Below, piece after piece: positions 8,906-60,652 of a stretch of 64,000 bases of DNA. Both the position numbers and the translations under genes were made by a program. Numbering within the stretch: position 1 is the stretch's first letter; each line of letters opens with the position of its first letter. The stretch is from Bacilli bacterium. Lineage in GTDB: Bacteria; Bacillota_I; Bacilli_A; RF39; UBA660. Under the pieces are notes generated by a model that worked only from the letters and a program-made list of their open reading frames with translations, searched no databases and was not told the origin of the DNA. The stretch spans positions 12,090 through 76,089 of the forward strand of contig JAFWKJ010000002.1 of assembly GCA_017511375.1 (NCBI GenBank), read 5' to 3'.

Positions 8906-10453
8906 TTATTCTTTTGTAACATCTATTCTCATAAACAAAGGGCTTGGTTGACCCAATTCATAAGAAAAATCATCAAGATAAACAAAATCCTTACAATCCG
9001 TTTGAATTTGTTCTAATATTTTATTACTTGTTTCTGGTAAGAAAGGCTCAAGTAAAACAGCACATACACGAATAGATTCTAACAAATTATACAAAACCGT
9101 TTCTAAACGATCTTTTTGATTTTCATCTTTTGCTAAAATCCATGGAGTGGTCTCATCAATATACTTATTACTTGAACGAAGAACATTAAATATCTCCGTA
9201 ATGGCATCACTAATTTGTAACTCATCCATTTTCTCAGTAACTTTCTTTTCTAATTGATTAATAGATTGGATAAAGGAATCATCCATCGTATCCGTAATAT
9301 GTTTATTACAAATCTTACCACTAAAGTATTTATTACCCATAGAAATCGTTCTTTGAACTAAATTTCCTAAGATATTAGCAAGATCTCCATTAATTCTTTC
9401 AATTAACAAATCACGTGTAAAAACACCATCACTAGCAAATGGAATTTCATGTAAGAAGTAATATCTGACAGCGTCTACACCAAATTCATCTACTAAATCA
9501 TCTGCATAGATGACATTTCCTCTAGATTTACTCATCTTTCCATCACTCATGATTAACCAAGGATGTCCAAACACCTGTTTTGGAAGAGGAACATCTAAAC
9601 TCATTAAGAAACAAGGCCAATAAATCGTATGAAAACGAATAATATCTTTTCCTATTAAATGCAAGTCAGCTGGCCATTTATAAGCAAATTCATCGTTGCC
9701 TCCATCTACATCATAACCAATATTCGTAATATAATTTGTTAATGCATCTAACCAAACATAAACAACATGTTTAGGATCAAAATCAACAGGAATTCCCCAA
9801 CTAAAAGAAGTACGAGAAACACATAAATCTTGTAATCCAGGTTTAATGAAGTTGTTAATCATCTCATTTTTACGAGCAACAGGTTGAATAAAATCAGGAT
9901 GAGATTCAATATACTCTTCCAATTGTTTTTGATATTTACTCAACTTAAAGAAATAAGCCTCTTCACTCTTCTTTTCAACAACTCTTCCACACTCAGGGCA
10001 AACAACTTGACCTTCTTCATTCTTCACAACTTGACTATCTGTCCAGAAGGATTCATCAGGCGTGCAATACCAACCTTCATACTTATCTAAATAAATATCA
10101 CCCTTATCAAACATATACTTAAAAATATGTTGAACAACTTCTTCATGATGTTTATCTGTAGTACGCACAAAACGATCATAACTCGTATTCATAATATCCC
10201 AAATACGTTTTATATCCGCTGCTTTTTCATCCACAAACTCTTGTGGTGTAACGCCTGCCTCCTTGGCTTTTAATTCAATTTTTTCTCCATGTTCATCAGT
10301 ACCAGTTTGAAAATAAACATCAAAACCTTGTAAGCGCTTGTATCTTGCAATTGCGTCAGCCAAAACAATCTCATATGTATTACCTATATGTGGTTTCCCT
10401 GATGTATAAGCAATTGCCGTTGAAATATAATATTTTTTCTTTTCTTTTTCCAT
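8906..10453 (-). CDS. metG: Methionine--tRNA ligase (short form)
   Basis: HIGH-type PHIGNTYE, KMSKS, and a CPECG zinc knuckle. Start set at ATG 10453 (GGAGGG plus 6 nt). Confidence 0.93.
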   Translation of the reverse strand: MEKEKKKYYISTAIAYTSGKPHIGNTYEIVLADAIARYKRLQGFDVYFQTGTDEHGEKIELKAKEAGVTPQEFVDEKAADIKRIWDIMNTSYDRFVRTTDKHHEEVVQHIFKYMFDKGDIYLDKYEGWYCTPDESFWTDSQVVKNEEGQVVCPECGRVVEKKSEEAYFFKLSKYQKQLEEYIESHPDFIQPVARKNEMINNFIKPGLQDLCVSRTSFSWGIPVDFDPKHVVYVWLDALTNYITNIGYDVDGGNDEFAYKWPADLHLIGKDIIRFHTIYWPCFLMSLDVPLPKQVFGHPWLIMSDGKMSKSRGNVIYADDLVDEFGVDAVRYYFLHEIPFASDGVFTRDLLIERINGDLANILGNLVQRTISMGNKYFSGKICNKHITDTMDDSFIQSINQLEKKVTEKMDELQISDAITEIFNVLRSSNKYIDETTPWILAKDENQKDRLETVLYNLLESIRVCAVLLEPFLPETSNKILEQIQTDCKDFVYLDDFSYELGQPSPLFMRIDVTKE

Positions 10454-10461
10454 AGTCATCC

Positions 10462-10690
10462 CTCCAAAAAAAAGACTATTACAAATGTAAGGACGAATCA
10501 TCGCGGTACCACCTTACTTCATAATAATCTCTATTACACACTTTATACGTTAACGCCGCCTACGCCTATACCTACCTATCAATATAGAAGTTCAGAAGCC
10601 ATACTGCTTAATTCTGTTTATGCTTATTTCCACCAACAAAGCTCTCTCTAATAACCGTCTGAAAAAAGCGCTCTTCATCAAAACATTTCA
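10462..10690 (-). promoter_or_regulatory. T-box leader upstream of metG
   Basis: On the minus strand: TGATGAAGAGC stem I start; AGAGAGAGC...GGTGGAA box; conserved T-box AAGGTGGTACCGCGA at 10501-10515; U8 tract at 10464-10473. Candidate AUG specifier at 10600-10602. I could not resolve the terminator helix by eye. Confidence 0.85.
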
Positions 10691-19657: not shown

Positions 19658-21340
19658 TTACTCAATTTCAACAATATCATCACCAAATAGTGATATTGCA
19701 CTATTTGATATTATATCATCATTCTTTATTTCTTCCAAGAGTATGTCCGGTTCTTTCAACAACTCATATTTTTCATTATTTTTAATCTTTGAAATATACT
19801 CATTTTTTAAGACATCCCATTGCTGATCAGAAACAATTGCAATATTCTTATTAGATTTCGTTATTTGATTATAAACATCTTGTAGTTTAAGAATATTAAC
19901 AAGATTTTGAGCAACAATAGCATCAGAATCATAACTAATTATCATAGAATCAGTTCCAACAACTCTAATTTTAGAATCCAACAACTCATTAACTAGATAA
20001 CCAATTTCCTGATCAAATGAATAATCTTTAAGAAGTTCAAAATTAGAAGATTCTTCCTTTAATAACTTCTTATCAGCTGTAGCAAAAGTATTATTAATTC
20101 TAACAGAAAGGATTTCGTCAATATTTATTATTTTAGGGACATGATAATTATAATCCATTACATCTTCAGAAGAATGATTGACCACATCCGTTTCACTGTA
20201 AAAGTCGTTATTGTTTAATTTAGGCTTACTATCGATATTTTTTTCTGATTTGATTTCTGATTTATCTTTTTCCACAGGGTTCTTTTCGATATTATCATTA
20301 GAAGAAATATAATCATTTATAAATTTTAATAAAAACATTTCAATAAATACTTTTGTATTACTACTTCTTTTAATATCATTCATTTTTTCGTTTAATTCAT
20401 TCACAAAAACCTGTAATAAATCTATAGACAAATCTGTATTCTTCTTTTCTAAATAATAATCCACAATAATATCACGAGTATAATTAACAACTTGAATCAT
20501 AATTTGAATTAAATTTTTACCTTTAATATTAAACTGGGAAATAATTTCAAGAGTGTTTTTAATATCACCCGACATAATACTTTGAATCAATTCAAATAAA
20601 TCTTGATCAGATACAATACCATTTACCTCATTAAAGTCATCTATCGTAATTTTTTCATCTGTATAAGAAACCATTTTATCTAATAAACCAATAGCATCCC
20701 TTAGTCCTCCATCAGATAATAAGGCAATCTTATCTAAGACAGCATCCTCAATTTTTATTTTTTCTTTCTTACAAATAAATGCAAGTCTCTCACGAATTGT
20801 TTCATTTGAAATACGTTTAAAAGAAAAGCATTGGCAACGAGAAACAATTGTATCAGGAACTTTTTCAGGATCTGTAGTAGCTAAAATAAATATTACATGT
20901 GCAGGAGGTTCTTCTAGTGTTTTCAATAACGCGTTAAAAGCAGCGTCAGAAAGCATATGAACTTCATCTACAATATATACTTTATATTTTAATTCAGAAG
21001 GAACCAAAGCAACGTTATTACGCAATTCTCTAATTTCATTTACACCATTGTTAGATGCAGCATCAATTTCAATAATATCAACACATTCATTAGAAAAAGA
21101 AAATTGACACGCATCACATTTTTTACAAGCTAAACCATTTTTAGGAGACAAACAATTAACATTTCTAGCAAAGATTTTTGAAACAGAAGTTTTTCCAGTA
21201 CCCCTAGGTCCAAAGAACATATAAGCATGTGAAAAATTTTGATTAACAATAGAATTTTGTAATGTTTTAATAATAGACTCTTGCCCTACTACCGAATCAA
21301 AATCTGTAGGTCGATATTTACGATATAAAGCGCGATACAT
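19658..21340 (-). CDS. dnaX: DNA polymerase III gamma/tau subunit
   Basis: MYRALYRKYRP, GPRGTGKTS, DEVHML, SRCQ and a zinc module CKKCDAC. Start at ATG 21340 after GGGAGG. Confidence 0.94.
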   Translation of the reverse strand: MYRALYRKYRPTDFDSVVGQESIIKTLQNSIVNQNFSHAYMFFGPRGTGKTSVSKIFARNVNCLSPKNGLACKKCDACQFSFSNECVDIIEIDAASNNGVNEIRELRNNVALVPSELKYKVYIVDEVHMLSDAAFNALLKTLEEPPAHVIFILATTDPEKVPDTIVSRCQCFSFKRISNETIRERLAFICKKEKIKIEDAVLDKIALLSDGGLRDAIGLLDKMVSYTDEKITIDDFNEVNGIVSDQDLFELIQSIMSGDIKNTLEIISQFNIKGKNLIQIMIQVVNYTRDIIVDYYLEKKNTDLSIDLLQVFVNELNEKMNDIKRSSNTKVFIEMFLLKFINDYISSNDNIEKNPVEKDKSEIKSEKNIDSKPKLNNNDFYSETDVVNHSSEDVMDYNYHVPKIINIDEILSVRINNTFATADKKLLKEESSNFELLKDYSFDQEIGYLVNELLDSKIRVVGTDSMIISYDSDAIVAQNLVNILKLQDVYNQITKSNKNIAIVSDQQWDVLKNEYISKIKNNEKYELLKEPDILLEEIKNDDIISNSAISLFGDDIVEIE

Positions 21341-21387: not shown

Positions 21388-21837
21388 TTAAGAATTTCTT
21401 TGCTTTTTAAAGAAAGAATTTAATATTTCTTTTGAAGACACAATATCCAGATTTGATTCAAAAATCACTTCAGGATTTATTTTGTCTTTATGAAAGATTT
21501 TTTGAATAATTTTAATATTATTTTCATCTAGATTATTTAAAGCCGAATAAACACATTTTATACGAGATTGTTTAATAGCGCTCGCACACATAGGACACGG
21601 ATCAAGTGTTACGTATAATTCACAGCCATCTAATCTCCAATTATTCAGTTTACGTGTGGCTTTTTGAATAACTTGAATTTCCGCATGATAAATACTACAA
21701 TTTTTCTTTTCTTTCATATTATGTGCTTTAGCAAGTATCTTTCCATCTTTTACGATCACCGCACCTACAGGAACCTCATTTAATTCAAATGCTTTTTGTG
21801 CCTCTTTAAAAGCTATATCAAAAAATCTATTATTCAT
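21388..21837 (-). CDS. tadA: tRNA adenosine(34) deaminase
   Basis: HAE...PCPMC deaminase zinc motifs, 149 aa. Confidence 0.92.
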   Translation of the reverse strand: MNNRFFDIAFKEAQKAFELNEVPVGAVIVKDGKILAKAHNMKEKKNCSIYHAEIQVIQKATRKLNNWRLDGCELYVTLDPCPMCASAIKQSRIKCVYSALNNLDENNIKIIQKIFHKDKINPEVIFESNLDIVSSKEILNSFFKKQRNS

Positions 21838-21849
21838 ATTTTCCTCCTA

Positions 21850-21936
21850 AAAAAGAAAAAGTGCACATGGAAGGAGGACTTTAAGGCTGCTACCTTCCGA
21901 TCCTGACCTGGTTCAGTCACTTCCATTGCACGTTCT
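21850..21936 (-). ncRNA. ffs: Signal recognition particle RNA, minimal 4.5S-like form
   Basis: The minus strand reads GUGCAAUGGAAG...CCAGGUCAGGAUCGGAAGGUAGCAGCC...CUUCCAUGUGCAC followed by a U-tract. This is the conserved domain IV (AGGUCAGG, GGAA tetraloop, AGCAGCC) closed by a 12-bp helix. Confidence 0.85.
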
Positions 21937-21942
21937 TATTGT

Positions 21943-21969
21943 ATTATAAAGAAATAAAAAAGTAAACAA
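21943..21969 (-). promoter_or_regulatory. Probable sigma-A promoter of ffs
   Basis: On the minus strand, TATAAT at 21948-21943 and TTGTTT at 21969-21964 (15-nt spacer, suboptimal). The predicted transcription start is about 7 nt upstream of the SRP closing helix. Confidence 0.5.
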
Positions 21970-21987
21970 TAAAAGCAACATTTTACT

Positions 21988-22003
21988 CGTTTCACGTGAA
22001 ACT
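21988..22003. promoter_or_regulatory. parS-like site (ParB/Spo0J loading site), 14/16 match
   Basis: CGTTTCACGTGAAACT compared with the palindromic parS TGTTTCACGTGAAACA. The central 14 bp are a perfect palindrome. Confidence 0.75.
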
Positions 22004-22047
22004 TAATAAAAATGTACTGTTTTTATTTCCCAAATAGCATTAAAAAT

Positions 22048-22063
22048 TATTTCCCGGGAAATA
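22048..22063. promoter_or_regulatory. Noc-binding site (NBS), 16/16 match
   Basis: TATTTCCCGGGAAATA matches, from memory, the published B. subtilis NBS consensus (core ATTTCCCGGGAAAT). It sits inside an 18-bp perfect palindrome at 22047-22064. Confidence 0.75.
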
Positions 22064-22084
22064 ATTTGATAAAAAACAAAGAAA

Positions 22085-22100
22085 TATTTCCCGGAAAATA
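22085..22100. promoter_or_regulatory. Noc-binding site (NBS), 15/16 match
   Basis: TATTTCCCGGAAAATA has a single G-to-A change relative to TATTTCCCGGGAAATA. Confidence 0.65.
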
Positions 22101-22102
22101 CA

Positions 22103-22118
22103 TGTTTCACGTGGAACA
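22103..22118. promoter_or_regulatory. parS site, 16/16 match
   Basis: TGTTTCACGTGGAACA is the reverse complement of TGTTCCACGTGAAACA, the B. subtilis parS consensus. Confidence 0.85.
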
Positions 22119-22142
22119 AAAAAAGAGACATAATAGTCTCTT
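22117..22142 (-). terminator. Intrinsic terminator of gyrA
   Basis: Stem AGAGAC / GTCTCT with a 6-nt loop, then U7 on the minus strand, starting 7 nt after the gyrA stop. Confidence 0.75.
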
Positions 22143-22148
22143 TCTAAA

Positions 22149-24617
22149 TTATTCACTAATTTCACTTGTTTCAACAAGTTCTTCAGAACTTTCTTCTTCT
22201 TGTTTTTCTTTTTCAACAAGAGCTACAGTAGATAATCTTTGTTCATCTTTTAAATTCATTAAGCGAACACCTTGTGTTGCTCTTTTTAAGGTAGATACCT
22301 GATCTAATGGAAGTTTAATAATCATACCACTATCCGTCATCATAATTAAATCAAGTTCTTCATCAGCATTAAAGCATTTAAGAGAAACTAAAGCACCATT
22401 TTTATCGGTAACATTATATGCTTTAACACCCTTACTACCTCTATGTGTTAAACGATATTCATCAATCAAAGATTTTTTACCATAACCATTAGCGGTAACA
22501 ATTAAAACCATTTCTCCAGGAACAACAGCATCTGCCCCCACGACGATAGCTCCATCTAATTCTATACCTTTAACTCCAGAACTACTACGTCCCATAGCAC
22601 GAATCTCATTTTCATCAAAACGAACCATACGGCCATTACTTGCTCCAATAACAATTTCATTTTTTCCACAAGTCTTTTTAACACTAATTAGCTCATCATC
22701 TTCACGCAAAACAATTGCAATCTTACCACTTTTACGAATATTATCAAATTCTTCTATAGCCGTACGTTTAACAATACCATTCTTAGTTGCGAACATTAAA
22801 TATTTCGTATTATCATCACTAGGACTAACACTAAGTATCGAACTAATGTTCTCTTCTTTTTCAAGCGGTAATAAGTTAATAATAGGTAATCCTTTAGATT
22901 GTCTAGAAAATTCAGGAACTTCATATCCTTTCATTCGATAGACTCTACCACGATTAGAGAAGAATAGTAAATAATCATGTGTACTCATTGATAATATTTT
23001 TTCCACAAAGTCTTCTTCGTTAGTAGACATACCTTTTATACCTACTCCACCACGATTTTGCGTCTTGTAAGTATCTGTTCTTAAACGTTTAATATAACCA
23101 TTCTTCGTTAAGTTAATAATAATATTTTCTTCAGGGATTAAAGACTCATCTTCAATATATTCAATGGCTGTCATATCAATATTGGTACGTCTTTCATCAC
23201 CATATTTTTGTTTAATTTCAAGCAATTCATCTTTAATAACACCAAGGATTCTTTGATCACTTGCTAAAATAGCCTTTAATTCTTCAATAAGTTTTAATAA
23301 ATCAGATAATTCACTTTCAATCTTATCACGCTCTAATCCAGTTAAACGACGTAATTTCATTTCAAGAATTGCGTTTGCTTGAACATCTGTAAGACCAAAA
23401 CTACTCATTAAGCCATTTCTAGCTTCTTCATCGTCTCCTGCACCACGTATAATTTTAATAACCTCATCAATATGATCAAGAGCAATTTTTAAACCTTCTA
23501 AGATATGAACTCTTTTTTCTGCTCCATCTAGTTCAAAGCGAGTTCTACGAATAATAATTTCTTTTTGATATTCAATGTATTTAACAATAATATCTTTTAA
23601 ACCAAGTGTTTTAGGAACACCTTGATCTAGCATCAAGAAGATGATTCCATACGTTGTTTGAAACTGTGTATGTTTAAATAATTTATTTAAAACAACTTGA
23701 GCATTCGCATCTTTCTTTAAAGTAATAGTTATTTTGATACCATCTTTTAAATCAGAATGATAATCAGCAATACCATCAATAATCTTATTATGAACAAGTT
23801 CAGCAACCTTATTCTTTAGTTCTAATGTATTAACACCATAAGGAACTTCATCAATAACAATATATTGTTTTCCATTTTCCTCTTGAATCGTTGCTTTACT
23901 ACGAATCGTGATAGATCCTCTACCAGTTTCATAAGCTTGACGAATACCACTATTTCCTAAAATAGTAGCTCCAGTAGGAAAGTCCGGTCCTTTAATATAT
24001 TGCATCAAACCATCAAGTTCAATATCCGGATTATCAATGTAAGCAACACATCCATCAATTACTTCCCCTAAGTTGTGAGGAGGAATATTGGTTGCCATAC
24101 CAACAGCAATACCCGTAGTACCATTTACTAAGATATTTGGAAATCTAGAAGGTAATACTTCCGGTTCTCTTTCACTCTCATCAAAGTTAGGAGTAAAATT
24201 AACCGTATCTTTATTAATATTTCGAAGTAATTCCAATGAAATCTTAGATAAACGAGACTCTGTATAACGCATAGCAGCAGCTCCATAACCTTCAATGTTA
24301 CCAAAGTTACCATGTCCATCTACTAACATATAACGGTAACTAAAGTCTTGTGCCATACGTACCATAGCTTCATAAATAGAAGAATCACCATGTGGGTGAT
24401 ATTTACCCATAACATCACCAACGATTTTAGCACTCTTCTTATGAGGTTTATCAGGCGTATAACCTGATTCATACATTGAATACAAAATACGTCTGTGAAC
24501 AGGTTTTAAACCATCTCTAAGGTCAGGTAAAGCACGAGCAACAATAACACTCATGGAATACTCTAAAAATGAATCTTCTACTTCTTTAACAATATTATTT
24601 TTTTCTAATCGATCCAT
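22149..24617 (-). CDS. gyrA: DNA gyrase subunit A
   Basis: [37 protein letters not shown] (catalytic Tyr), and a C-terminal beta-pinwheel plus acidic tail. Confidence 0.96.
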
Positions 24618-24626
24618 AAAACCCTC

Positions 24627-26555
24627 CTAAATATCAAGATTCTCAACATGAGGAGCATTCGTTTCAATAAATTCACGCCTAGGTTCAACTTCTTCACCCA
24701 TTAATTTAGAGAAAACTTCATCAGCGGCAATTGCATCCTCAACTGTAATCTGTCTCAAAATACGTTTATGAATATCCATAGTCGTTTCATTTAACTCTTC
24801 AGCATCCATCTCTCCTAAACCTTTCATACGAGAAATATCATACTTTGTATTAGGAGATAAACTGGCAAGATATTCATCTCTTTCTTCTTCGTTTAAAACA
24901 TATTTAATCGTTTTTCCATGTTTAATACAGAATAATGGAGGTTGGGCAGCATACACATGTCCAGCTTCAACAATTGGTCGAAAGAAACGATAAAATAACG
25001 TTAATAATAAAACACGAATATGACTACCATCTACATAAGCATCAGTCATAATAATAATCTGATGATAACGTAGTTTAGATAAATCAAATTCTTCCCCGAT
25101 TCCAGTACCAAAAGCAGTAATAATAGTTCGAATTTCTTCATTACCTAAAGCTCTATCAAGTCTTGCTTTTTCTACATTTAGTATTTTACCTCTTAAAGGA
25201 AGAATAGCTTGTGTCATAGAATCTCTACCTTTGATAGCAGATCCTCCAGCAGAATCACCCTCGACTAAGAAAATTTCAGAAATCGTAGCATCCTTACTTT
25301 TACAATCAGATAGCTTACCATAAAAATTAGTAACATCTAAATCTCCTTTTCTACGAGTTAATTCTCTTGCTTTTTTAGCAGCAACTCTTGCCCTACTAGC
25401 AGTCATAGACTTATCAATAATTACACGAGCTTGATCAGGATTTTCCATTAAAAATCTCTCAAAAGATTCAGAAAATATTTTATCCACAATCCCACGAACT
25501 TCACTATTTCCTAATTTTGTCTTAGTTTGACCTTCAAATTGAGGATTTGGATGTTTCACAGAAATAATCATCGTTAATCCTTCTCTACAGTCTTCACCAG
25601 TAAGTGGATCATCTTTTTCTTTTAAAATACCGTTCGTTGTTGCATATTTATTCATAATTCTTGTTAACGCTCTTTTAGCACCATCTTCATGAGTTCCACC
25701 CTCAGGAGTCGTAATATTATTAACAAAAGAATAAACACTTTCATTATAAGATTCATTATATTGAAGAGCTACTTCTACTTTAATATCTTTATCAGCACCT
25801 TCAATATCTACAATTGTTTCATGAATAGGATTCTTGTTTTTATTAAGCATTTCAACATATTCGACAATTCCACCTTCATAGTAGAAAGAGTCTTTTTTTT
25901 CGGCTTCTCTTTCATCATATAAAGAAATTCTTAAGCCTTTATTTAAGAAAGCTAACTCTTTTAATCTTGTTTTTAAAATATCATAATCAAATACTGTTGT
26001 TTCCGTAAATATTTCATCATCAGGTAAAAAATGTACAGTCGTACCTGTTCTATCCTTATCACAATGATCTATAATTTTTAATTCATCATCAGGATGTCCC
26101 CCATGACTAAATCTTTGATAATAAATATTACCATCACGATATACTTTTACTTCTACCCAGTCAGATAAAGCATTAACAACACTAGCACCAACTCCATGAA
26201 GTCCACCAGATACTTTATATCCTCCACCACCAAATTTTCCACCAGCATGCAATACTGTATACACAGTTTCTACAGTACTTTTTCCTGTTTTTGGATGAAT
26301 ATCAGTAGGAATACCACGTCCATCATCTTTTACAATAATACTATTATCCTTACAAACTGTAACTTCAATATGTTTACAATAACCAGCTAAAGCTTCATCA
26401 ATAGAATTATCAACAATTTCCCAAACTAAATGATGTAATCCTCTAGAACTTGTTGTTCCTATATACATTCCTGGACGTTTTCTTACTGCTTCTAATCCTT
26501 CTAATACTTGAATTGATGAGGAATCATACTCTTTATTTACTCTTTCATCTTCCAT
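24627..26555 (-). CDS. gyrB: DNA gyrase subunit B
   Basis: GHKL ATPase region ([17 protein letters not shown]), QTKTKLGN, and Toprim EGDSAGG. The acidic triad reads DAYVDG instead of DADVDG (see finding). Confidence 0.95.
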
Positions 26556-27783: not shown

Positions 27784-28236
27784 TTAACTATTTTTTCTAT
27801 TATTTAAAACAAGATCTAATCGAGAAGCACGAGACATTTGATTTTCAATTGATCTAAAAGAACAAGGTATAATTATTTCTTCTTGATTATCAAAAATAAT
27901 TTTCGTGTTATAATTATCTACTTTATAAATATTATAAACTCTTTTCAAAGAAATCCAAATACAATCATCTGCATAAGGTGACGTAGTAGGAAAAGCAATT
28001 AAATTAGAAGAATCCTCAACCACAATAGGTACTTTATATTCAGCACCTAAGATAGATTTAGAACCTTCTTTTCTTCCTTCATAAGAACTACCAAAATATC
28101 TACAACTATCCTCCATGATTTGAAATGGTTTTACGGAAATAATATATTTATCATTATCCTCTAATACTAAACTAGTATTCCCATCATTAGGAACAATCGC
28201 TAAAGTTCCTTTACTAAATTCATATTTATTAATCAT
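27784..28236 (-). CDS. comK: ComK-family competence transcription factor (short, 150 aa)
   Basis: VKPFQIMEDSCRYFGSSYEGRKEGS aligns with B. subtilis MKPLQIVDRSCRFFGSSYAGRKAGT. Also PIVVEDSSNLIAFPT, CIWIS and SIENQ align with B. subtilis ComK. Confidence 0.85.
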   Translation of the reverse strand: MINKYEFSKGTLAIVPNDGNTSLVLEDNDKYIISVKPFQIMEDSCRYFGSSYEGRKEGSKSILGAEYKVPIVVEDSSNLIAFPTTSPYADDCIWISLKRVYNIYKVDNYNTKIIFDNQEEIIIPCSFRSIENQMSRASRLDLVLNNRKNS

Positions 28237-29616: not shown

Positions 29617-31002
29617 TTAAACAACCCCAATATCTTTTTTTAATTTTTCTATAATATTATATAAATCTTTATTATCTTTCATTTCTTTTTCAATCTTTTC
29701 AACCGAATGCATTACAGTAGAATGATCTTTTCCACCAAATTCAATTCCTATTTTAGGAAAAGACTCATTTGTCATATTTCTACATAAGTACATAGCAATT
29801 TGTCTTGGAAATGAAATATTAGAACTTCTTTTTTTACTTCTGATATCATCAACTGATATTTGGAAATGTTCTGATACTATCTTTTGAATTCGATAGATAT
29901 CATTTTTTTCTCCCATACCTTTACTATTAAAGTCTTTCAAAGCTTCTATTGCTAACTCTAAGGTAATTTCTTCTCCTCCCATAATGGTGGAGTAAGCAAC
30001 CAATCGAGTAATAGCACCTTCTAAATGTCTAACATCAGGACCAATATTAGAAGCAATATATTCAATCACATCATCCGGTATATCTTTTTCAAAATTATTC
30101 GCAATAATTTTCTTCTTTATAATATCACGTCTAAGATTATAATCAGGAGGAGAAATATTAACTCCTAAACCAAAACTAAATCGAGTTCTAAGTCTTTCCT
30201 CTAATTGTTTTAAATCATCAGGACTTCTATCAGAAGAAACAATAATTTGTTTACTATCATTATATAAGTTATTAAATGTATGAAAGAATTCTTGTTGTGA
30301 TTGTTGAGCACCACCTAAATATTGAATATCATCAATAATTAAAACATCAATATTTCTATATTTATTTTTAAAAAATTCAACGTAGTTAAAGTTAGTACCA
30401 TTTTCATCTTTTCTATTTGTTTTAACAAATTCATCTACAAATTGTTCTGAAGTAACATATAAGACCCTCTTATTAGAATGTTCTCCTATATAATTACCAA
30501 TAGCATGCATTAAATGAGTTTTCCCTACCCCACTATTTCCATATAAAAATAATGGATTATATATTTTCCCAGGATTTTCCGCAACAGATAAAGCTGCTGC
30601 CTGTGCAAATTTATTAGAATTTCCAACAATAAAGTTTTCAAAAGTATAATTTTTATTTAAGTTTGAATTTGCTTTGTAAGAAAAATCTTCCTGTTTTTCT
30701 TCAATTTTTTCTTCCACAATTTCAATTTTATTATTATTTTCTTCTTCTTCTTCAATATCTTCTTTTAAACAAAAAATAAGTTCATAATTAGAATTTGTAA
30801 TTTCATATAATAAAGAAGATATTAAATCTGAATATTGCCCCCCTAAATTTCTTTTATGGATAAGCATAGGTACGATTATAATTGCTTTACCATCTTGTAA
30901 TTTATATAATTCCGTTTCAGAAAACCAAGTATTAAAAGATAGTGTTGAAAGTTTATCTTTTAGTTTACTTAGCAATTTAGACCATACGATATCTACATTC
31001 AA
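29617..31002 (-). CDS. dnaA: Chromosomal replication initiator DnaA
   Basis: GNSGVGKTHL, LIIDDIQ, DVRHLEGA, and the C-terminal DNA-binding region PRQIAMYL...GGKDHSTV. I favour the TTG start at 31002 (GGGGAG 8 nt upstream) over the track start TTG 31020, which has no SD. Confidence 0.95.
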   Translation of the reverse strand: MNVDIVWSKLLSKLKDKLSTLSFNTWFSETELYKLQDGKAIIIVPMLIHKRNLGGQYSDLISSLLYEITNSNYELIFCLKEDIEEEEENNNKIEIVEEKIEEKQEDFSYKANSNLNKNYTFENFIVGNSNKFAQAAALSVAENPGKIYNPLFLYGNSGVGKTHLMHAIGNYIGEHSNKRVLYVTSEQFVDEFVKTNRKDENGTNFNYVEFFKNKYRNIDVLIIDDIQYLGGAQQSQQEFFHTFNNLYNDSKQIIVSSDRSPDDLKQLEERLRTRFSFGLGVNISPPDYNLRRDIIKKKIIANNFEKDIPDDVIEYIASNIGPDVRHLEGAITRLVAYSTIMGGEEITLELAIEALKDFNSKGMGEKNDIYRIQKIVSEHFQISVDDIRSKKRSSNISFPRQIAMYLCRNMTNESFPKIGIEFGGKDHSTVMHSVEKIEKEMKDNKDLYNIIEKLKKDIGVV

Positions 31003-31020
31003 ACTACCATCTCCCCACAA

Positions 31021-38011: not shown

Positions 38012-38800
38012 ATGGGAAAAGAAAAGAAAGAAAAAACAACAGACAAAAAAATAATTGCTAGTGAATCATCAATTATTAGAATTACAATACTTGTAAGTTT
38101 GTTAATTTGTACAGCAGCCCTTGGAGGGTATTTGGCAGGTTCTTCAAAAACAATAGATAAAATTGTATTCAACCATGAAACCGGAGAAAAGAACAAAAAC
38201 TTTTTCAAATCTTCAGAACAACCAAGTAACGAAATTGGAGAAACAAATCAAAACGCAATTAACCCACTAGATTTGACAAAGAGTTTAAATACAACAGGAA
38301 AAGCATATAGTAATGCCAAAGAAACACAAGAAGATATTGGATTAACAATTAAAGTTTCTGGAAATAGTGCCGTATTAATTACAGATCCTAAGTTTTGTAA
38401 TCTTGCTGCCATCGTATGTGGACCAGAGCCATATGAGACAGAAATCAGAAACTTCAATGGTAAGATTGCATCAGGATTTGTTGGAGAAGTTGGACAAAGT
38501 ATTCAAGGAACTAGATTATTCTATTTAATGGAAGATGGAACTGTTGAATATACAAGAGTATTTGCTAAAGCAGAAGACTCAAATGGTAACTTCTATTATG
38601 TAATGAATTATGCCCAAGAAACTGAAAACGGACAAGTAACTTCTACGTATTTCTCAAGCCAAGGAAAAGTTCCTGGAGTAAAAGATGTATATAAAATCTA
38701 TTTAGCTGATGTTTCTGTTGAAAACGGTGGTGGTTATAGAACTACAATCGCTGCAACAAAAGATGGAAGCTTCTATGATTTAGGAGAAATCGTAAAATAG
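38012..38800 (+). CDS. Hypothetical membrane-anchored extracytoplasmic protein (262 aa)
   Basis: Basic N-terminus, one TM segment (ITILVSLLICTAALGGYLAG), then a soluble domain with no recognisable motif. Strong SD AAAGGAGAGGAAGG and its own terminator. Confidence 0.7.
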   Translation: MGKEKKEKTTDKKIIASESSIIRITILVSLLICTAALGGYLAGSSKTIDKIVFNHETGEKNKNFFKSSEQPSNEIGETNQNAINPLDLTKSLNTTGKAYSNAKETQEDIGLTIKVSGNSAVLITDPKFCNLAAIVCGPEPYETEIRNFNGKIASGFVGEVGQSIQGTRLFYLMEDGTVEYTRVFAKAEDSNGNFYYVMNYAQETENGQVTSTYFSSQGKVPGVKDVYKIYLADVSVENGGGYRTTIAATKDGSFYDLGEIVK

Positions 38801-38951: not shown

Positions 38952-40262
38952 ATGTATGAAGGCTATGAAAATAAAGACGAAGTTGTTCAATTATATTTAG
39001 ACGACATCATTCCAAATAGATTTCAACCACGTGAAGTGTTTGATGAAAAAGCATTAAAAGAACTAGCTGTTTCTATTAAAGAACATGGTGTAATTCAACC
39101 AATTATCGTTCGTAACGTAAATGGAAAATATGAAATCATAGCAGGAGAAAGAAGATACAAAGCTTCTGCTTTAGCAGGGCTAACAAAGATTCCTGCCATC
39201 ATAAGAAACTTGGATGATAAGGAAAGTTCAAAAGTAGCACTACTTGAAAATTTACAAAGAAAGAATCTAAATCCAATTGAAGAAGCAAGAACTTATCAAA
39301 AAATATTAGAATTAGATCAAATGACACAAGAGGAACTTGCTAAGACAATGGGAAAAAGTCAGTCCGCTGTTGCTAATAAAATAAGATTATTATCATTATC
39401 AGATGATATTCAAGAATCTATTTTAAAAGAAAGAATTTCAGAAAGACACGCAAGAGCCCTATTAAATGTAAAAGATTCAAAAATTCAAAGAGAACTTATG
39501 GACCAAGTAATTGCAGACAAAATGAGTGTAAGAGCCTTAGAAGAAAAAATTGAGCAAATGTTTCCAAAAGGAAAAACGGGAGATGATATTCCGATTGATA
39601 ATAATGCTTCCACAGGCGAATTCTTAAATGCAACACCACTAAAACCAACAGCAAATGCTATTCAAGAAGAAGTATCTAATTATGGAAAAGTGGTAATTGC
39701 CCCTCCTAAAGAGACGACAGATGAGCCTAAAGAAGAAACAAAGAATGAGGAGGAGATTTCTACGAATAAATTCATAAACTTTGGAGACAATGGAAAAGGA
39801 CCAAATAGTGGATTAGAGGAACAACCTCTTTCTCCAGTTAGCAGACATATTGATATGGATGAAGTAAGAAAAAATGCAACCGATATCAAACCATCCTCAG
39901 GAGCAGCCTTAGATAATTTGTTAAATATTAATACTTCATCAACAGTCCCATTAAGTAAAGAAGAGCAAATGCAAAAAGAAGACTATTTTTCACCGCCAGA
40001 AATCCCATCTATTAAACTAGATGAGGAAGAGGACGAAAAAAAGGATGATTCTATTGAAAACCCTTTAATACCAAATACAGTAGGGGAGTCTTCTGTTCTT
40101 CCATCTCTTGATATGGGAGGGGATACTTACACAGTAGAAGAATCCAAGAAAAAAATAGTAGATTTAGTAGAGGACCTAAAACAACACGGAGTAAAAGTAC
40201 ATTCTGATGAGATGGATTTTCCTAAATCTTATCAGATAATCATTAAAATTGATAAAGAATAA
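38952..40262 (+). CDS. noc: ParB-family protein, Noc-like (nucleoid occlusion paralog) with a long low-complexity linker
   Basis: ParB N-domain (IPNRFQPR, IIAGERRYKAS). HTH region GKSQSAVANKIRLL...ISERHARAL resembles B. subtilis Noc (GQSTIANKLRLL...ITERHARAL). The C-terminal end HGVKVHSDEMDFPKSYQIIIKIDKE resembles the Noc C-terminus. Position after rsmG. 436 aa against about 283 aa. Confidence 0.75.
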   Translation: MYEGYENKDEVVQLYLDDIIPNRFQPREVFDEKALKELAVSIKEHGVIQPIIVRNVNGKYEIIAGERRYKASALAGLTKIPAIIRNLDDKESSKVALLENLQRKNLNPIEEARTYQKILELDQMTQEELAKTMGKSQSAVANKIRLLSLSDDIQESILKERISERHARALLNVKDSKIQRELMDQVIADKMSVRALEEKIEQMFPKGKTGDDIPIDNNASTGEFLNATPLKPTANAIQEEVSNYGKVVIAPPKETTDEPKEETKNEEEISTNKFINFGDNGKGPNSGLEEQPLSPVSRHIDMDEVRKNATDIKPSSGAALDNLLNINTSSTVPLSKEEQMQKEDYFSPPEIPSIKLDEEEDEKKDDSIENPLIPNTVGESSVLPSLDMGGDTYTVEESKKKIVDLVEDLKQHGVKVHSDEMDFPKSYQIIIKIDKE

Positions 40263-40359: not shown

Positions 40360-41154
40360 ATGGGAAAGGTTATATCATTAGTGAATCAAAAAGGTGGAGT
40401 AGGAAAGACAACAACAAGTATCAATCTTTCTGCATCATTAGGAGTATTAGGAAAGAGAGTATTATTAATAGACTTAGATCCACAAGGAAACACAACTACT
40501 GGTGTAGGAATTAATAAGGGAGAAATAGATAAGAGTATCTATGATGTTTTAATTGAGGAATGTAATATTAAAGATACTGTAATTAAAACAAAATATAATA
40601 ATCTATATGTAATCCCAGCAACGATTAATTTAGCAGGTTTAAATGCAGAGTTGCTTGAAAAAAGTAGAACGCAAGCTGGATACAGAAAAGGAGAAAAATT
40701 AAAAGAGTGTTTAGCAGAAATAAAGGACGATTTTAACTATATTATTATTGATTGTCCTCCATCTCTAGATTTAATAACAATCAACGCTTTGACTGCTTCA
40801 AACTCAGTAATTATCCCTGTTCAATGTGAGTTCTTTGCTCTAGAAGGAATTACACAATTACTAAGAACTATTATGCAAGCTCAAAAGACATTAAATCCAA
40901 CACTTGATATTGAAGGAGTTCTATTAACAATGCTTGATTCTAGAACCAATTTAGGTTTTGAAGTCGTAGAAGACATTCGTAGTTTCTTTAAAGAAAAAGT
41001 ATATAATACGATCATACCAAGATTAGTTAAATTAACAGAAGCTCCCTCACATGGAGAACCTATAATAGTTTATGATCCAAAGAGTAGAGGATCAGAAGCT
41101 TATATCAATCTAGCAAAGGAAGTGATTGAAAGAAATGGAAACGAACAATATTAA
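40360..41154 (+). CDS. soj: Chromosome partitioning ATPase ParA/Soj
   Basis: Deviant Walker A NQKGGVGKTT, IIIDCPP, 264 aa. Lies upstream of parB. Confidence 0.94.
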   Translation: MGKVISLVNQKGGVGKTTTSINLSASLGVLGKRVLLIDLDPQGNTTTGVGINKGEIDKSIYDVLIEECNIKDTVIKTKYNNLYVIPATINLAGLNAELLEKSRTQAGYRKGEKLKECLAEIKDDFNYIIIDCPPSLDLITINALTASNSVIIPVQCEFFALEGITQLLRTIMQAQKTLNPTLDIEGVLLTMLDSRTNLGFEVVEDIRSFFKEKVYNTIIPRLVKLTEAPSHGEPIIVYDPKSRGSEAYINLAKEVIERNGNEQY

Positions 41155-42043
41155 TGAAAGTGGAATTCCTAGAAGAAGAGCTCTAGGGAAAGGACTAGAA
41201 GAACTATTTAATAGTGAAATTATTGATTATAGTACCGTAGAAGAACAAATAGTAAATGAAACACCAAAAGAAGCCATTACAAATATAAAGTTGAAAGATT
41301 TGAGACCAAATCCATATCAGCCAAGAAAAGTATTTGATGAAAAATCTTTAAATGAACTAGCTGAATCCATCAAAGAACATGGTGTATTTCAACCAATTAT
41401 CGTAAAAAATTCAATAAAAGGTTATGAAATCATTGCGGGTGAAAGAAGAGTAAAAGCATCAGAAATGGCTGGTTTAGAAGAAATTCCTGCAATTATTAGA
41501 GATTTTAGTGATACGCAAATGATGGAAATTGCATTGCTAGAGAATTTACAAAGAGAAAACCTAACTGCAATTGAAGAAGCAAATGCATATAAAAAATTAC
41601 AAGAAACACTTGTAGTAACACAAGAAGAATTAGCAAATCGACTAGGAAAAAGTAGAAGTCATATTACAAATATGTTAGGATTATTATCCTTACCAGAAGA
41701 TATTCAAAATGATATTAATAACAAAAAAATAACAATGGGACATGCCCGTGTATTAAGTAAATTAGATAATGTGGTGCAACAAAGAGAACTAGAAAAGAAA
41801 ATCATTGAAGAAGGAATGAGCGTTAGAGAATTAGAAAAAATAACGCAAGAATCTGAAATTACAAAAACAAATCCACAAAAGAAGCGTAAACAACAAAATG
41901 AATATGCTTATTTAGAAGATGAATTAAGTGAAAAATTAGGAACAAGAGTAAAATTTAAGAAAAATAAAGTTGAAATTTACTTTGTGAATAATAATGATTT
42001 AAATAGAATTTTAGAATTATTAAATATAGAAGTAGATAAATAG
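41126..42043 (+). CDS. spo0J: Chromosome partitioning protein ParB/Spo0J
   Basis: [24 protein letters not shown] region [14 protein letters not shown]...TMGHARVL (parS type), and a C-terminal dimerisation domain. The start may be 41126 or 41135. Confidence 0.93.
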
Positions 42044-45673: not shown

Positions 45674-46762
45674 ATGAAATCAAAACACATGACAATCATA
45701 GGAATCATTATTTTAGTGATAGCCTTTGTTATGATTGAAATAGGTTTTGTAGTAGCATCAAAACAGGAAGAGCCAAAGGGAGAAAAATCCCCAACAAAAA
45801 CCAATATATCAAAGGATAAAATGGTTCTTTCTAAGGAAGAAAGATATAGTAATAATAAACTAATAGAACGGATTAGTTATTCCTATGATTCTAAAGGAAA
45901 CGTTAAATCTGCAAAACTAAAATATGACTGCAAAGATTATGAACATTGTACTTATATGGAAACGGCTGCTAGAGGATTATATAAATACAAATATAAACAT
46001 AAAAATGGGAAGTTACATAATCTTGTAAAAATAGACTTATATACAAAGGATGGCGTATCAACTTACTATGAGGATGATGACTTAAACCCAATCAAAAAGT
46101 ATGGATATGATGCTGTCCTTATGAATAGAGAAGAAAAAGACATTATTGTGACGTATGAGTATGATAGTCAAAAAAGAATTAGTAAAAGAATTGGCTCTCA
46201 ATATGGCAAAGAAAGATCAACGGTTACTTTTGAATATGATGAAAACAATAACATAATTAATCAAAACTTTCATATTAAAGGAGGAACAGAATATCATAAT
46301 CAATATACTTATGATGAACAAAATAATGTAACTAGTTTTAGCGTAGATTATATCATTAAAGAAGAAGATGAAATTATTTATGATTCAGACGGATTTGAAG
46401 GACTTGGGAATGAAGGTAAACTAGTCATTAACTATAACTATGACTATAAAGAAGATCTTATAAAGAATATAAAGGTAAATGTAAATTTTAATAATACATA
46501 TCAAGAAGAATATATAGTAAATAGAGAATATGATGAAAATAAAAATCTTGTTTTAGAAAAAATCGTTAGAACAGACAGTGAAAGGCCAGGGGAAAGAACT
46601 ACATATCTGAGAAAACTATATTATGAAGAAAGTCCTTGGAACAAAAACACATCAGAATACACAATAAAAAAATATCAATTAGAAACTCAATCTGATTCTC
46701 TAGTTGAGTATTTATATAAAGAAGACAATTGGCTAGCTTGTTATCACTTCTTTATGTATTAA
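45674..46762 (+). CDS. Membrane-anchored YD/RHS-repeat-like protein (362 aa)
   Basis: An N-terminal TM segment, then at least 6 units of the form xYxYDxxxN: ISYSYDSKGNV, VTYEYDSQKRI, VTFEYDENNNI, YTYDEQNNV, INYNYDYKEDL, VNREYDENKNL. Confidence 0.65.
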   Translation: MKSKHMTIIGIIILVIAFVMIEIGFVVASKQEEPKGEKSPTKTNISKDKMVLSKEERYSNNKLIERISYSYDSKGNVKSAKLKYDCKDYEHCTYMETAARGLYKYKYKHKNGKLHNLVKIDLYTKDGVSTYYEDDDLNPIKKYGYDAVLMNREEKDIIVTYEYDSQKRISKRIGSQYGKERSTVTFEYDENNNIINQNFHIKGGTEYHNQYTYDEQNNVTSFSVDYIIKEEDEIIYDSDGFEGLGNEGKLVINYNYDYKEDLIKNIKVNVNFNNTYQEEYIVNREYDENKNLVLEKIVRTDSERPGERTTYLRKLYYEESPWNKNTSEYTIKKYQLETQSDSLVEYLYKEDNWLACYHFFMY

Positions 46763-49815: not shown

Positions 49816-51177
49816 ATGCCAACCAGAGCATTACCAAACAATTTAGAAGCCGAAGAATCCGTATTAGGATCATGCTTTTTATCTAAATATGCACTTCAAA
49901 AAGCAGCAGAGACACTTACACCAGAAGCATTCTATAGCGAGAAGAATGCCAAGATTTTTGCAGCCATGATTGCCTTACAAGAAGGAGCAACCCCAATCGA
50001 TATAACAACCGTAACAAGCTATTTGAAAAATAAGAATATGCTTTCTGAAGTAGGGGGAGTTGAGTACTTAACAGAGGTATTAAACTATGTGCCTACCGCA
50101 AGCAATGTAGATTATTATATAAAAAGTGTAGAAGATTCAAGCGTATTAAGAGGATTAATTACTACGGCAGAAGATATTGCCCAAGAGGGATATAATCAAG
50201 AAGAAACAATCAACGAAATTTTAGATAATTCTGAAAAGAAGATTCTAAATATAGTTAAAAGAAGAACCTCATCAGAATTTAGAACGATTAAAGACATTGT
50301 TTCTAAAACAAAATCAGATTTAGAGAGACTGTCAGAAAGAGATGGAGAAATCACGGGACTAGAAACTGGATGGATGGATTTTGATAGAATTACAACAGGT
50401 CTACATCCAAATGAACTTATTATTATTGCAGCACGACCTGCCATGGGAAAAACAGCGTTTGCGCTAAATTTGGCAACCCATGTTGCCATGACGCAAGATA
50501 AAGCAGTTGCCTTATTTAACTTAGAAATGAGTGCTGAGCAGTTGGCTATGCGTATCTTTTCATCTCTAGGCCAAATTGATGGATTTAAACTAAGAACAGG
50601 AAAGTTGTTAAACCCAGATTGGAAAAGAATTAATGAAGCGGCTTCTCAATTATCAAATACAAATCTTGTAATGGATGATACACCAGGAATTACCATAGGA
50701 GAATTAAGAGCTAAATGTAGACGACTTGCAAGTAGTGAAAAAGGCCTAGCTCTTATCGTAATCGACTATCTACAATTACTTTCAGGAGGAAGAAACTATG
50801 GGGCCAATAGACAACAAGAAGTATCGGACATATCAAGAAGTTTAAAAACACTAGCTATGGAATTAGGAGTACCTGTAATAGCTCTTTCTCAGTTATCACG
50901 TAGTGTCGAATCACGAGATGACAAGAGACCATTAATGAGTGATTTACGTGAGTCTGGATCCATTGAGCAAGATGCCGATATTGTTGCTTTCCTATATAGA
51001 GAAGACTATTACAATAAAGAATTAAGATCAGAAGATAATAATAGTATTAGTGAATTGATCATAGGAAAACATCGTAATGGACCAACCGCAACCATAGAAT
51101 TATTATTTAAAAAGAACACATCAACCTTTTTAAGTTTAAGAAAGAATAAGAATGAGGAGGGAAAACCTAGTGCATAA
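49816..51177 (+). CDS. dnaB: Replicative DNA helicase (DnaB family; called DnaC in B. subtilis)
   Basis: LPNNLEAEESVLGS N-terminus, ARPAMGKTAF Walker A, VIDYLQL, and an ALSQLSR arginine-finger region. Confidence 0.95.
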   Translation: MPTRALPNNLEAEESVLGSCFLSKYALQKAAETLTPEAFYSEKNAKIFAAMIALQEGATPIDITTVTSYLKNKNMLSEVGGVEYLTEVLNYVPTASNVDYYIKSVEDSSVLRGLITTAEDIAQEGYNQEETINEILDNSEKKILNIVKRRTSSEFRTIKDIVSKTKSDLERLSERDGEITGLETGWMDFDRITTGLHPNELIIIAARPAMGKTAFALNLATHVAMTQDKAVALFNLEMSAEQLAMRIFSSLGQIDGFKLRTGKLLNPDWKRINEAASQLSNTNLVMDDTPGITIGELRAKCRRLASSEKGLALIVIDYLQLLSGGRNYGANRQQEVSDISRSLKTLAMELGVPVIALSQLSRSVESRDDKRPLMSDLRESGSIEQDADIVAFLYREDYYNKELRSEDNNSISELIIGKHRNGPTATIELLFKKNTSTFLSLRKNKNEEGKPSA

Positions 51178-54634: not shown

Positions 54635-55366
54635 CTAATAACGATGATTATAGGGATAAGGCCCATCATCATGACGTGTTCCTGTTTTGTTGACAGTAAC
54701 CTTTCCTTGCGTATGATGAAAATCATATAGTTCTTCCTGATTGATATTAGTTTTATTCTTATACTTAAATAGTAAGAATAAAAAACTTAATAGGAAGGAT
54801 AAGGTTAAAGCAATAAATACACTACTAGCATATCGTAAAGGCTCTAACACAATTCCACCAGATAACAGGGTATTGAATTTTGAAAAAGCATGGGATGCAC
54901 AACCATAATAATTTTTTTGGGACATATAAGAAGAAAGACTCTTATCAATAGAATATACTTTATAATTTGTAATGATTTGTTTGTTTTTCCCTTCTGAAAA
55001 AATAGAAGTTTTATTATGTTCTGCATCGATCATAAACAAACTACCAGTACTTGTTCCATAAAATGATTGATATACGTGAATCGCATAGTATTCTTCCGTA
55101 GTAGCATCTGTAGAGAAAAACAAAATATTACCATAATCGGTAAGAGGAATCATTTCCTTCAATAGTTTTTCTTTTTCGTTTTGTGTTAACAAATTTGCAT
55201 GATCGACAATTCTAGCTTCATAAGAATTATTACTATTTTTATAAAGCATATCCTCTTCTTCAAGATTCACAGGGGTTTCGTTATGTGGATTGTCTTCTAA
55301 TGCAAATACAAAAGATACAGATAAAAAGGCAATCATTATTAAGAATAACAATAATTTTTTACTCAT
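54635..55366 (-). CDS. TPM-domain membrane protein (YdjH/YgcG-like)
   Basis: Signal peptide MSKKLLLFLIMIAFLSVSFVFA. ARIVDHANLLTQNEKEKLLKEM is typical of a TPM-domain N-terminus. C-terminal TM segment. Start set at ATG 55366. Confidence 0.7.
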   Translation of the reverse strand: MSKKLLLFLIMIAFLSVSFVFALEDNPHNETPVNLEEEDMLYKNSNNSYEARIVDHANLLTQNEKEKLLKEMIPLTDYGNILFFSTDATTEEYYAIHVYQSFYGTSTGSLFMIDAEHNKTSIFSEGKNKQIITNYKVYSIDKSLSSYMSQKNYYGCASHAFSKFNTLLSGGIVLEPLRYASSVFIALTLSFLLSFLFLLFKYKNKTNINQEELYDFHHTQGKVTVNKTGTRHDDGPYPYNHRY

Positions 55367-60541: not shown

Positions 60542-60652
60542 ACCCATCACCAATATTAGTATGGAAGTTGCTAAGAAAAATATGTATGAAAAATATGGAA
60601 AAAAATTAAAATTATGATATAATCAATACTGAAATTTGAAGTAGGTGATTTA

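Follow-up and report, generated by a model that had tools for sequence, protein, structure and literature searches.

The DNA analysed here is a stretch of 64,000 nucleotides from an uncultured bacterium of the class Bacilli (assembly GCA_017511375.1, contig JAFWKJ010000002.1), called the window below. Its spacer between gyrA and ffs, the gene for the small signal recognition particle (SRP) RNA, contains a 131-bp cluster of motifs for two related DNA-binding proteins: parS, the site of ParB (Spo0J), and NBS, the Noc-binding site. ParB and Noc are clamps dependent on cytidine triphosphate (CTP) that slide after nucleating at their respective site, parS or NBS (PMC8429893). parS sites are origin-proximal; NBS are also found in the origin-proximal part of the chromosome, where they are dispersed. 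The original prediction for this DNA took the two site types of B. subtilis to be described as separate sets, in agreement with the literature, and proposed that the spacer is a nucleation locus shared by both proteins.

parS and NBS motifs between gyrA and ffs

As references we used the 16-bp palindrome TGTTNCACGTGAAACA for parS and the consensus sequences TGTTTCAC-GTGAAACA and TATTTCCC-GGGAAATA, as printed in the methods of PMC7383237. When positions 21700–22500 were read, all five predicted motifs were found where they had been placed:

21988–22003, parS-L, CGTTTCACGTGAAACT, 14/16 to the palindromic parS
22024–22036, NBS half-site, TATTTCCCAAATA, that is, TATTTCCC followed by AAATA
22048–22063, NBS-1, TATTTCCCGGGAAATA, 16/16 to the NBS consensus
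22085–22100, NBS-2, TATTTCCCGGAAAATA, 15/16 to the NBS consensus
22103–22118, parS-R, TGTTTCACGTGGAACA, reverse complement TGTTCCACGTGAAACA (minus strand), 0 mismatches to the B. subtilis-type parS

The scores given for parS-L and for parS-R, the latter an exact reverse complement of the consensus, were reproduced by the scan, and those of NBS-1 and NBS-2 by comparison with the PMC7383237 consensus. Both mismatches of parS-L fall on the outermost positions, leaving the inner 14 bp perfect, and this site aligns with a promoter-proximal parS kept in four relatives. NBS-1 has the extended flanks AAAT...ATTT typical of the lineage (22044–22067). NBS-2, which lies 2 bp from parS-R, is without the lineage-consensus ATTT flank on that side.

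The predicted count of three Noc-type sites held for the two full NBS, but the third (22024–22036), which starts 36 bp after the start of parS-L, is only a half-site. It had been described as an NBS with its central GGG deleted; a half-site fits better, and similar half-sites recur in the spacers of relatives (12 in 44.5 kb of spacer vs 3 in 373 kb outside).

Mismatch-tolerant scans of the 64-kb window returned no further parS at up to two mismatches and no further NBS at up to one. A composite, defined as the cores of an NBS and a parS no more than 30 bp apart, was found a single time in the window; of 100 dinucleotide-preserving shuffles, none contained one. The scans agree with the earlier search by eye, which had found no other such sites. 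The octamer TATTTCCC is present five times in the 64 kb, on either strand; four copies are in the cluster, two of these being the halves of NBS-1. By the textbook description NBS are dispersed single sites, except near the terminus. The Noc-type sites of the window all lie in one 77-bp stretch, with none in the other 63.9 kb. The spacer is identical in four independent metagenome assemblies of the same species, so the cluster is not an assembly artefact.

Inside dnaX we noted an exact NBS half-site with a consensus flank (20536–20546, GGGAAATAATT) and a degenerate palindrome with 3 mismatches to parS (20798–20813, TGTTTCATTTGAAATA). In several relatives a perfect NBS lies in dnaX or close to it, 2.2–3.2 kb downstream of gyrA.

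On the minus strand the order is gyrB (24627–26555), gyrA, the cluster, ffs, tadA, dnaX, ybaB and recR. The features adjoining the cluster are as follows:

22149–24617, minus strand, gyrA (NF004043, 1147.8 bits), the upstream syntenic anchor of the array
22119–22145, minus strand, intrinsic terminator of gyrA, with a 10-bp stem, a 6-nt loop and a U-tract
21938–21969, minus strand, predicted ffs promoter region (from consensus match and conservation only)
21847–21940, minus strand, ffs, small SRP RNA (Rfam RF00169, 64.1 bits)

The terminator, missed by a simple consensus terminator scan, was detected by RNA folding (dG –12 kcal/mol, z –4.8). Its U-tract abuts parS-R, the last T being the first base of that site. 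TATAAT at 21943–21948, with –35-like hexamers (TTGTTT/TTTACT) upstream, is likely the –10 element of the ffs promoter. Folding, the Rfam match and the promoter consensus are in line with the predicted placement of the cluster, which abuts the gyrA terminator just upstream of the ffs promoter. With dnaA at 29617–31020, DnaA-box-like sites (at most 1 mismatch) peak at 31–32 kb, placing oriC about 9 kb from the cluster, as had also been predicted.

ParB-family proteins encoded in the window

Four positions (173, 179, 184 and 201 in Caulobacter ParB numbering) switch the specificity of these proteins: R-T-A-G gives preference for parS and Q-K-K-R preference for NBS, Q173 and R201 reading the A and the C, respectively, that distinguish NBS from parS, and a single lysine at 179 or 184 being sufficient for NBS preference (PMC7383237). 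The far side of oriC carries rsmG, a membrane protein open reading frame (ORF), the gene for a 436-aa ParB-family protein, soj and parB. The last three are:

38952–40262, plus strand, Noc-type ParB paralogue, 436 aa, Q-K-S-R (NBS type), GERR
40360–41154, plus strand, soj/parA ATPase
41126–42043, plus strand, parB/spo0J, 302/305 aa, R-M-S-G (parS type), LGKGL ParA-binding motif, GERR

The start codon of parB is likely the ATG at 41135. The gene has no internal parS at up to two mismatches, as predicted and unlike B. subtilis spo0J. Both paralogues keep the CTP-binding motif GERR; the ParA-binding motif, defined as [LFI]G[KR]G[LFI] (PMC12704722), is present only in ParB and not in the Noc-type protein. 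The two proteins share 55% identity over the N-terminal and helix-turn-helix (HTH) domains. Among solved structures, the best sequence matches of the Noc-type protein are Noc (7nfu, 2.7e-61; then 7ng0 and 7ol9), followed by ParB/Spo0J (4umk, 2.3e-52). It matches Pfam ParB_N and HTH_ParB, and its gene, about 17 kb from the gyrA–ffs spacer, stands next to soj-spo0J as expected for Noc. These predicted proteins support the view that the window encodes one paralogue matched to each of the two site types.

Mixed arrays in other genomes

We scanned 185,579 species genomes (596 Gb) for the composite pattern TTTCCCGGNAAA-N(0-30)-GTTNCACGTGNAAC, with a single gap of 0–30 bp, for which a rough estimate of the chance expectation is about one match in 596 Gb. 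At least 120 matches were listed. Of these, 111 are in uncultured, low-GC (23–37% G+C) metagenome-assembled genomes (MAGs) of Bacilli, from rumen, rabbit, chicken, mouse and human gut; the other nine are single hits in high-GC genomes, consistent with chance. The 111 MAGs carry the labels Bacilli, Erysipelotrichaceae, Tenericutes/Mollicutes, Mycoplasma sp. and Clostridium sp. CAG. NCBI labels for the loci are inconsistent, running from Bacilli, Erysipelotrichaceae, Tenericutes and Mycoplasma to Clostridium sp. CAG and Muribaculaceae; the CAG genomes we take to be Bacilli of the RF39/RFN20 type.

GyrA was found by tblastn with the window proteins in the same 8-kb block in 99 of the 111 listed cases, the rest being blocks cut on the tadA side. 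Among the matches listed, nearly all arrays lie within the gyrA-ffs-tadA-dnaX interval. The 77 blocks containing gyrA and tadA/dnaX hold 308 parS and 162 NBS in 63 kb of spacer, and 40 parS and 69 NBS in 531 kb outside it. Some arrays are large: in locus L083, 13 NBS alternate with 12 parS at ~40-bp intervals (repeat unit 79 bp), L082 has 9 + 9 sites, L061 has 11 + 11 over 2.5 kb, and L019 has 8 + 8. Many irregular arrays also consist of perfect sites. An NBS flanked by parS on both sides is a recurring arrangement. In 16 of 18 loci tested, ffs lies between the array and tadA; in L016 the array is downstream of tadA, and one locus had no ffs match. In six loci (L016, L040, L052, L077, L123 and L140) the tadA–dnaX interval holds the mixed array or a second one, either in place of the array in the gyrA–ffs spacer or alongside it.

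Since this set had been chosen by motif, a second sample was taken by homology to GyrA alone, using its C-terminal domain (80 metagenomic loci; the counts by GyrA identity refer to non-redundant complete spacers). At 80% GyrA identity or more, both site types were present in 16 of 16 spacers. At 70–80% (n = 26), 18 spacers had both, 5 parS only, 2 NBS only and 1 neither; at 60–70% (n = 14), 4 had both, 7 parS only and 3 neither. The sample as a whole contained 207 parS and 120 NBS in 44.5 kb of spacer vs 13 and 32 in 373 kb outside, that is, 7.3 vs 0.12 sites per kb, a ~60-fold difference. This distribution suggests that a parS array after gyrA is likely ancestral and that NBS were intercalated later, in the clade of the window organism. 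Isolated NBS in the flanks of parS-only relatives imply that a Noc-type protein is presumably present there too.

One species offers both proteins and an array. It was reached through loci fetched around RnpA homologues and is a human-gut species that one source labels Mycoplasma sp. CAG:877. L206 encodes a 441-aa Noc-type protein (QKAR) and a ParB (RMTG), in the order gyrA...dnaA...rsmG, Noc-type gene, soj, parB. Its DNA is 99% identical to that of L144, whose complete 1683-bp spacer contains 4 NBS and 6 parS. The 20 kb from gyrA to parB in the CAG:877-labelled species hold no further parS or NBS.

Well over 100 related species thus share the co-clustering, at a syntenic position that does not change, indicating that a shared nucleation locus near oriC, as originally proposed, is a selected feature. 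All told, interleaved arrays, often far larger than that of the window, were seen at this position in more than 150 related uncultured gut bacteria. The composite scan, at least 111 low-GC Bacilli genomes strong, likewise extends the co-clustering beyond the genome for which it was first described, and in the motif-blind sample the close relatives have the arrangement, whose absence there had been named as part of an outcome speaking against it.

Conservation and spacing of the sites

Both 16-mers have a high information content, calculated over contexts with unique flanks, which drops to the background level 1 bp beyond the edge of parS and 4 bp beyond that of NBS, giving the lineage NBS consensus AAAT-TATTTCCCGGGAAATA-ATTT. 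Relatives at 87–93% GyrA identity have quite different site orders and spacer lengths, and all of them keep both site types as well as a parS just upstream of the ffs promoter. Judging from these comparisons, conservation is limited to the sites, and the intervening DNA turns over. Of 95 multi-site arrays, 57 are unique in their inter-site DNA, whereas 30 consist mostly of recent tandem duplications. We therefore rejected the idea that the arrays are mere recent tandem repeats or, given the four identical assemblies, artefacts of assembly.

Half parS/half NBS hybrids and single-position intermediates were essentially absent, with 0–1 exact occurrences in 1.35 Mb, the same set containing 343 perfect parS and 441 perfect NBS. 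This argues for two separate homodimeric specificities and led us to discard heterodimer or dual-specificity sites.

The two types also tend to alternate. The 44 non-redundant arrays in the unbiased set have 274 adjacencies, of which 190 were heterotypic, compared with 145 ± 7 after label shuffling. Start-to-start distances between parS and NBS neighbours peak at 26, 36–37, 46, 58–59 and 69 bp, and distances of 40–41 and 51–54 bp are almost empty. With similar spacers collapsed (n = 100), the Fourier amplitude at 10.5 bp was 0.36, the 99.9th percentile of a jitter null being 0.27; parS–parS and NBS–NBS neighbour distances showed no significant periodicity. The phase, ~5 bp modulo 10.5, corresponds to half-integral turns, which would put neighbouring dimers on opposite faces of the helix. 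We regard phasing and alternation as a strong lead, the statistics being de-duplicated and clustered but not corrected for phylogeny.

Structure of the Noc-type protein

Noc has an N-terminal amphipathic helix that is extremely conserved and necessary for function (PMC4331003, PMC8429893). The N-terminus of the window protein, MYEGYENKDEVVQ, leaves no room for this helix and for helix alpha-2, which precede the fold in Noc; in alignment, Geobacillus Noc has ~17 extra N-terminal residues. The same holds throughout the family, which has only 9–15 acidic residues before the ParB fold. The best 120 database homologues are all 400–520 aa long with a short acidic N-terminus, and in 120 of 120 the motif PNRFQPR starts 14–20 residues (0-based offset) from the N-terminus. 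Q-K-[STAN]-R is present in all 119 homologues (of 120) in which the motif is readable; position 184 is S/T/A in the family vs the K typical of Noc. Against the NCBIfam model TIGR04285 (nucleoid_noc) the Noc-type protein scores 284.7 bits, below the cut-off of 315, and the window ParB 243.2. The proposal that the 38952 paralogue is the NBS partner stands as far as its specificity residues Q-K-S-R are concerned, but the protein is not a canonical Noc, being without the N-terminal membrane helix.

An AlphaFold2 model (46-sequence alignment) is confident for the N-terminal and HTH domains (10–203) and for the C-terminal domain (395–434), which is Noc-like. Residues 205–390, a ~190-aa linker, are largely disordered, and the model contains no folded domain within the linker. 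The linker (window positions 39565–40130) has short motifs, NYGKVVIAPP, KFINFGD, ALDNLLNI and DYF, that are nearly invariant over 46–120 homologues. By eye only, and without claiming a relationship, KFINFGDNGKG resembles FSRFFGLGEK of the Noc N-terminus, and GAALDNLLN resembles GKGLEELFN of ParB.

Between rsmG and the Noc-type gene of the window lies a 262-aa ORF (38012–38800, plus strand) that starts with a transmembrane-like segment at its N-terminal end and matches no family in Pfam or NCBIfam. We considered this membrane protein as a general stand-in for the missing helix and rejected it: in the CAG:877-like genus, L206 included, rsmG is followed directly by the Noc-type gene.

Other features of the window

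Exact DnaA boxes (TTATCCACA) are found within the parS/NBS arrays of 12 relatives, including L125, L126, L167, L168, L170, L155, L196 and L197; in relatives they number 27 in 44.5 kb of spacer vs 50 in 373 kb outside. The gyrA–ffs spacer of the window itself has no exact DnaA box. The gene for a ComK-family protein (27784–28236, minus strand; Pfam PF06338, 1.6e-43) sits between dnaN and recF, a position that it keeps in relatives (L205–L212, L028, L015). A T-box leader (10486–10690, minus strand; RF00230, 97.5 bits) precedes a methionyl-tRNA synthetase gene (8906–10501). A class A penicillin-binding protein (58583–60553, minus strand) and a LysM/G5/M23 peptidase (51152–52675, plus strand) indicate that the organism has a peptidoglycan wall, despite the Tenericutes and Mycoplasma labels on some relatives. 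Further ORFs include one of 539 aa without a Pfam match (55359–56978, minus strand), one of 362 aa with a sub-threshold RHS-repeat match only (45674–46762, plus strand), and one of 96 aa without a family match that runs over the cluster and the 3' end of gyrA (22012–22302, plus strand) and is probably spurious.

Discussion

Taken together, the data make it probable that the gyrA–ffs spacer is an origin-proximal composite centromere at which both clamps load. Two paralogous CTP-gated clamps would each nucleate on their own 16-bp palindrome in this short non-coding spacer, ParB/Spo0J (41126–42043) at the two parS sites and the Noc-type paralogue (38952–40262) at the two full NBS, perhaps also weakly at the half-site. 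Each would bind as a homodimer, close and slide onto the flanking DNA, and overlapping ParB and Noc-type nucleoprotein domains would form ~9 kb from oriC. Binding, CTP-dependent loading and sliding of the two proteins are what their motifs and specificity residues predict; the spacings of 26 and 36 bp suggest, in turn, that neighbouring sites can be occupied simultaneously, probably on opposite faces of the helix.

The missing membrane helix, together with the location of the densest sites in the centromere, points to an origin/centromere role for the Noc-type protein rather than to classical nucleoid occlusion. We infer that the paralogue has shifted from the genome-wide function to a centromere-centred one, where it may organise, bridge or anchor the partition complex through the motifs of its long linker. 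A more specific version, in which Noc was repurposed as a second centromere protein forming a heterotypic complex with ParB on the phased, alternating sites, by direct contact or through shared partners of the linker motifs, is offered tentatively; we would not give it an even chance.

Several points weigh against a composite centromere of this kind. All the organisms are known from uncultured MAGs, and binding by both proteins is predicted. Related sequences are non-independent, and about a third of the arrays are recent tandem duplications. The window itself is compact and of atypical geometry: its start-to-start distances (18 bp for NBS-2/parS-R, 37 for NBS-1/NBS-2 and 60 for parS-L/NBS-1) are off the modal phase, only the 36 bp from parS-L to the half-site falling on a modal value, and since NBS-2 abuts parS-R, this pair might be mutually exclusive. 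In relatives there are dispersed NBS outside the arrays, ~1 per 12 kb of flank, so the paralogue may still act genome-wide. Our site counts cover spacers and flanks, and we do not claim that the arrays are the main or only loading zone. Finally, the composite listing comprises at least 120 matches, so that the distribution outside the lineage is known in part.

The tight NBS-2/parS-R pair raises the question of competition or hand-off, in which adjacent parS and NBS are not co-occupied and one paralogue gates or limits the loading of the other. Here the two sites are 2 bp apart, and the extended footprints taken from the lineage consensus, longer at either end by 1 bp for parS and by 4 bp for NBS, overlap. 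However, the 18-bp spacing occurs in only 4 of about 190 loci. The common spacings are 26 and 36 bp, with a ~10.5-bp phasing confined to heterotypic neighbours; they can accommodate both dimers, and would seem to suit co-occupancy better than competition. Even in the window, NBS-1 is separated from parS-R by 39 bp and from parS-L by 44 bp. Competition is therefore unlikely as the general design of the lineage, and may apply to the NBS-2/parS-R pair of the window only. We think it quite unlikely that the array acts instead as a roadblock or insulator, one clamp blocking the sliding of the other so as to confine the partition complex, or as a promoter regulator that tunes or shields ffs and gyrA. 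Such a role would suit the position of the array, which has a terminator on one side and, on the other, the promoter of an RNA gene with high expression. It would also suit the parS that the window and four relatives keep directly upstream of the ffs –35, and the recurring NBS with parS on both sides. Some arrays, however, are found in the tadA–dnaX interval, away from the ffs promoter, and 20 or more sites over 1–2.5 kb far exceed the need of a roadblock or an operator. The readings are compatible, and roadblock or promoter regulation is possible as an addition to the composite centromere.

The partner of the CCCGGG-core palindromes could also be another factor, or a relaxed ParB, and not the 436-aa paralogue, whose NBS binding is predicted from sequence, whose position 184 is not the Noc-typical lysine, and whose score lies under the NCBIfam Noc cut-off. 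This we judge very unlikely: it is Q173, K179 and R201 that have been shown to give a protein its preference for NBS, one lysine being enough, Q-K-x-R is kept in every readable homologue, the site is identical to the experimentally defined NBS, and ParBs of the RxxG type prefer parS. Least probable of all is a neutral by-product, with functionless NBS-like sites arising by mutation and duplication in fast-evolving parS arrays. An NBS does differ from parS at just two positions per half-site, tandem duplication is common, and more distant relatives have parS-only arrays. Yet this origin is strongly disfavoured by 441 perfect 16/16 NBS with essentially no intermediates, by an extended flank consensus that NBS has of its own, by the presence of both site types in all 16 close relatives despite turnover of the spacer, and by alternation and phasing. 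On the sequence evidence, chance, a neutral by-product and an assembly artefact can be regarded as excluded.

The locus is best compared with the Spo0J/Soj centromere of B. subtilis, with which it shares the 16-bp parS, an origin-proximal position and the rsmG-(noc)-soj-spo0J operon; the window ParB is likewise of the B. subtilis kind (LGKGL, GERR, R-x-x-G). Unlike in B. subtilis, the parS sites of the window are concentrated in one spacer after gyrA instead of being scattered singly over the origin region, and in relatives this spacer expands to about a dozen parS, interleaved with the sites of a second paralogue. The Noc–NBS system of B. subtilis and S. aureus has the same NBS sequence, specificity residues of the same type and a gene likewise upstream of soj, and the window protein resembles Noc in its nearest sequence matches, C-terminal domain and CTP motif. 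It is the clustering of NBS among parS, and a protein with a ~190-aa linker carrying conserved short motifs in place of the amphipathic helix, that set the lineage apart from it. Plasmid and phage centromeres resemble these arrays in having closely spaced, sometimes phased ParB sites that make up one partition complex. To our knowledge, however, they use one site type and one protein, whereas the arrays described here are chromosomal and alternate two types for two paralogues. In the full-text literature searched, which lacks most subscription journals, we found no description of natural interleaved parS/NBS arrays or of a helix-less, long-linker Noc family. Synthetic dual-tag systems are described there (PMC11109969).

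The natural alternating arrays might themselves serve as compact dual-colour DNA tags, and the proteins, with the 131-bp natural fragment or longer arrays, are amenable to work in E. coli or in vitro without culturing the organisms.

ParB–parS and Noc–NBS are cited in textbooks to show how, after duplication of a DNA-binding protein, the copies acquired separate sites, genomic distributions and jobs. The lineage described here puts both site types side by side, alternating and rotationally phased, at one locus next to oriC, and its Noc copy has lost the membrane helix that defines the known mechanism. If both proteins load there, the arrays would pose the questions of how two sliding clamps share one loading zone, whether paralogous ParB-family proteins cooperate physically, and what a membrane-free Noc does. 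If, moreover, the repurposing is true, the origin in these bacteria would be organised by two paralogous CTP switches acting together.

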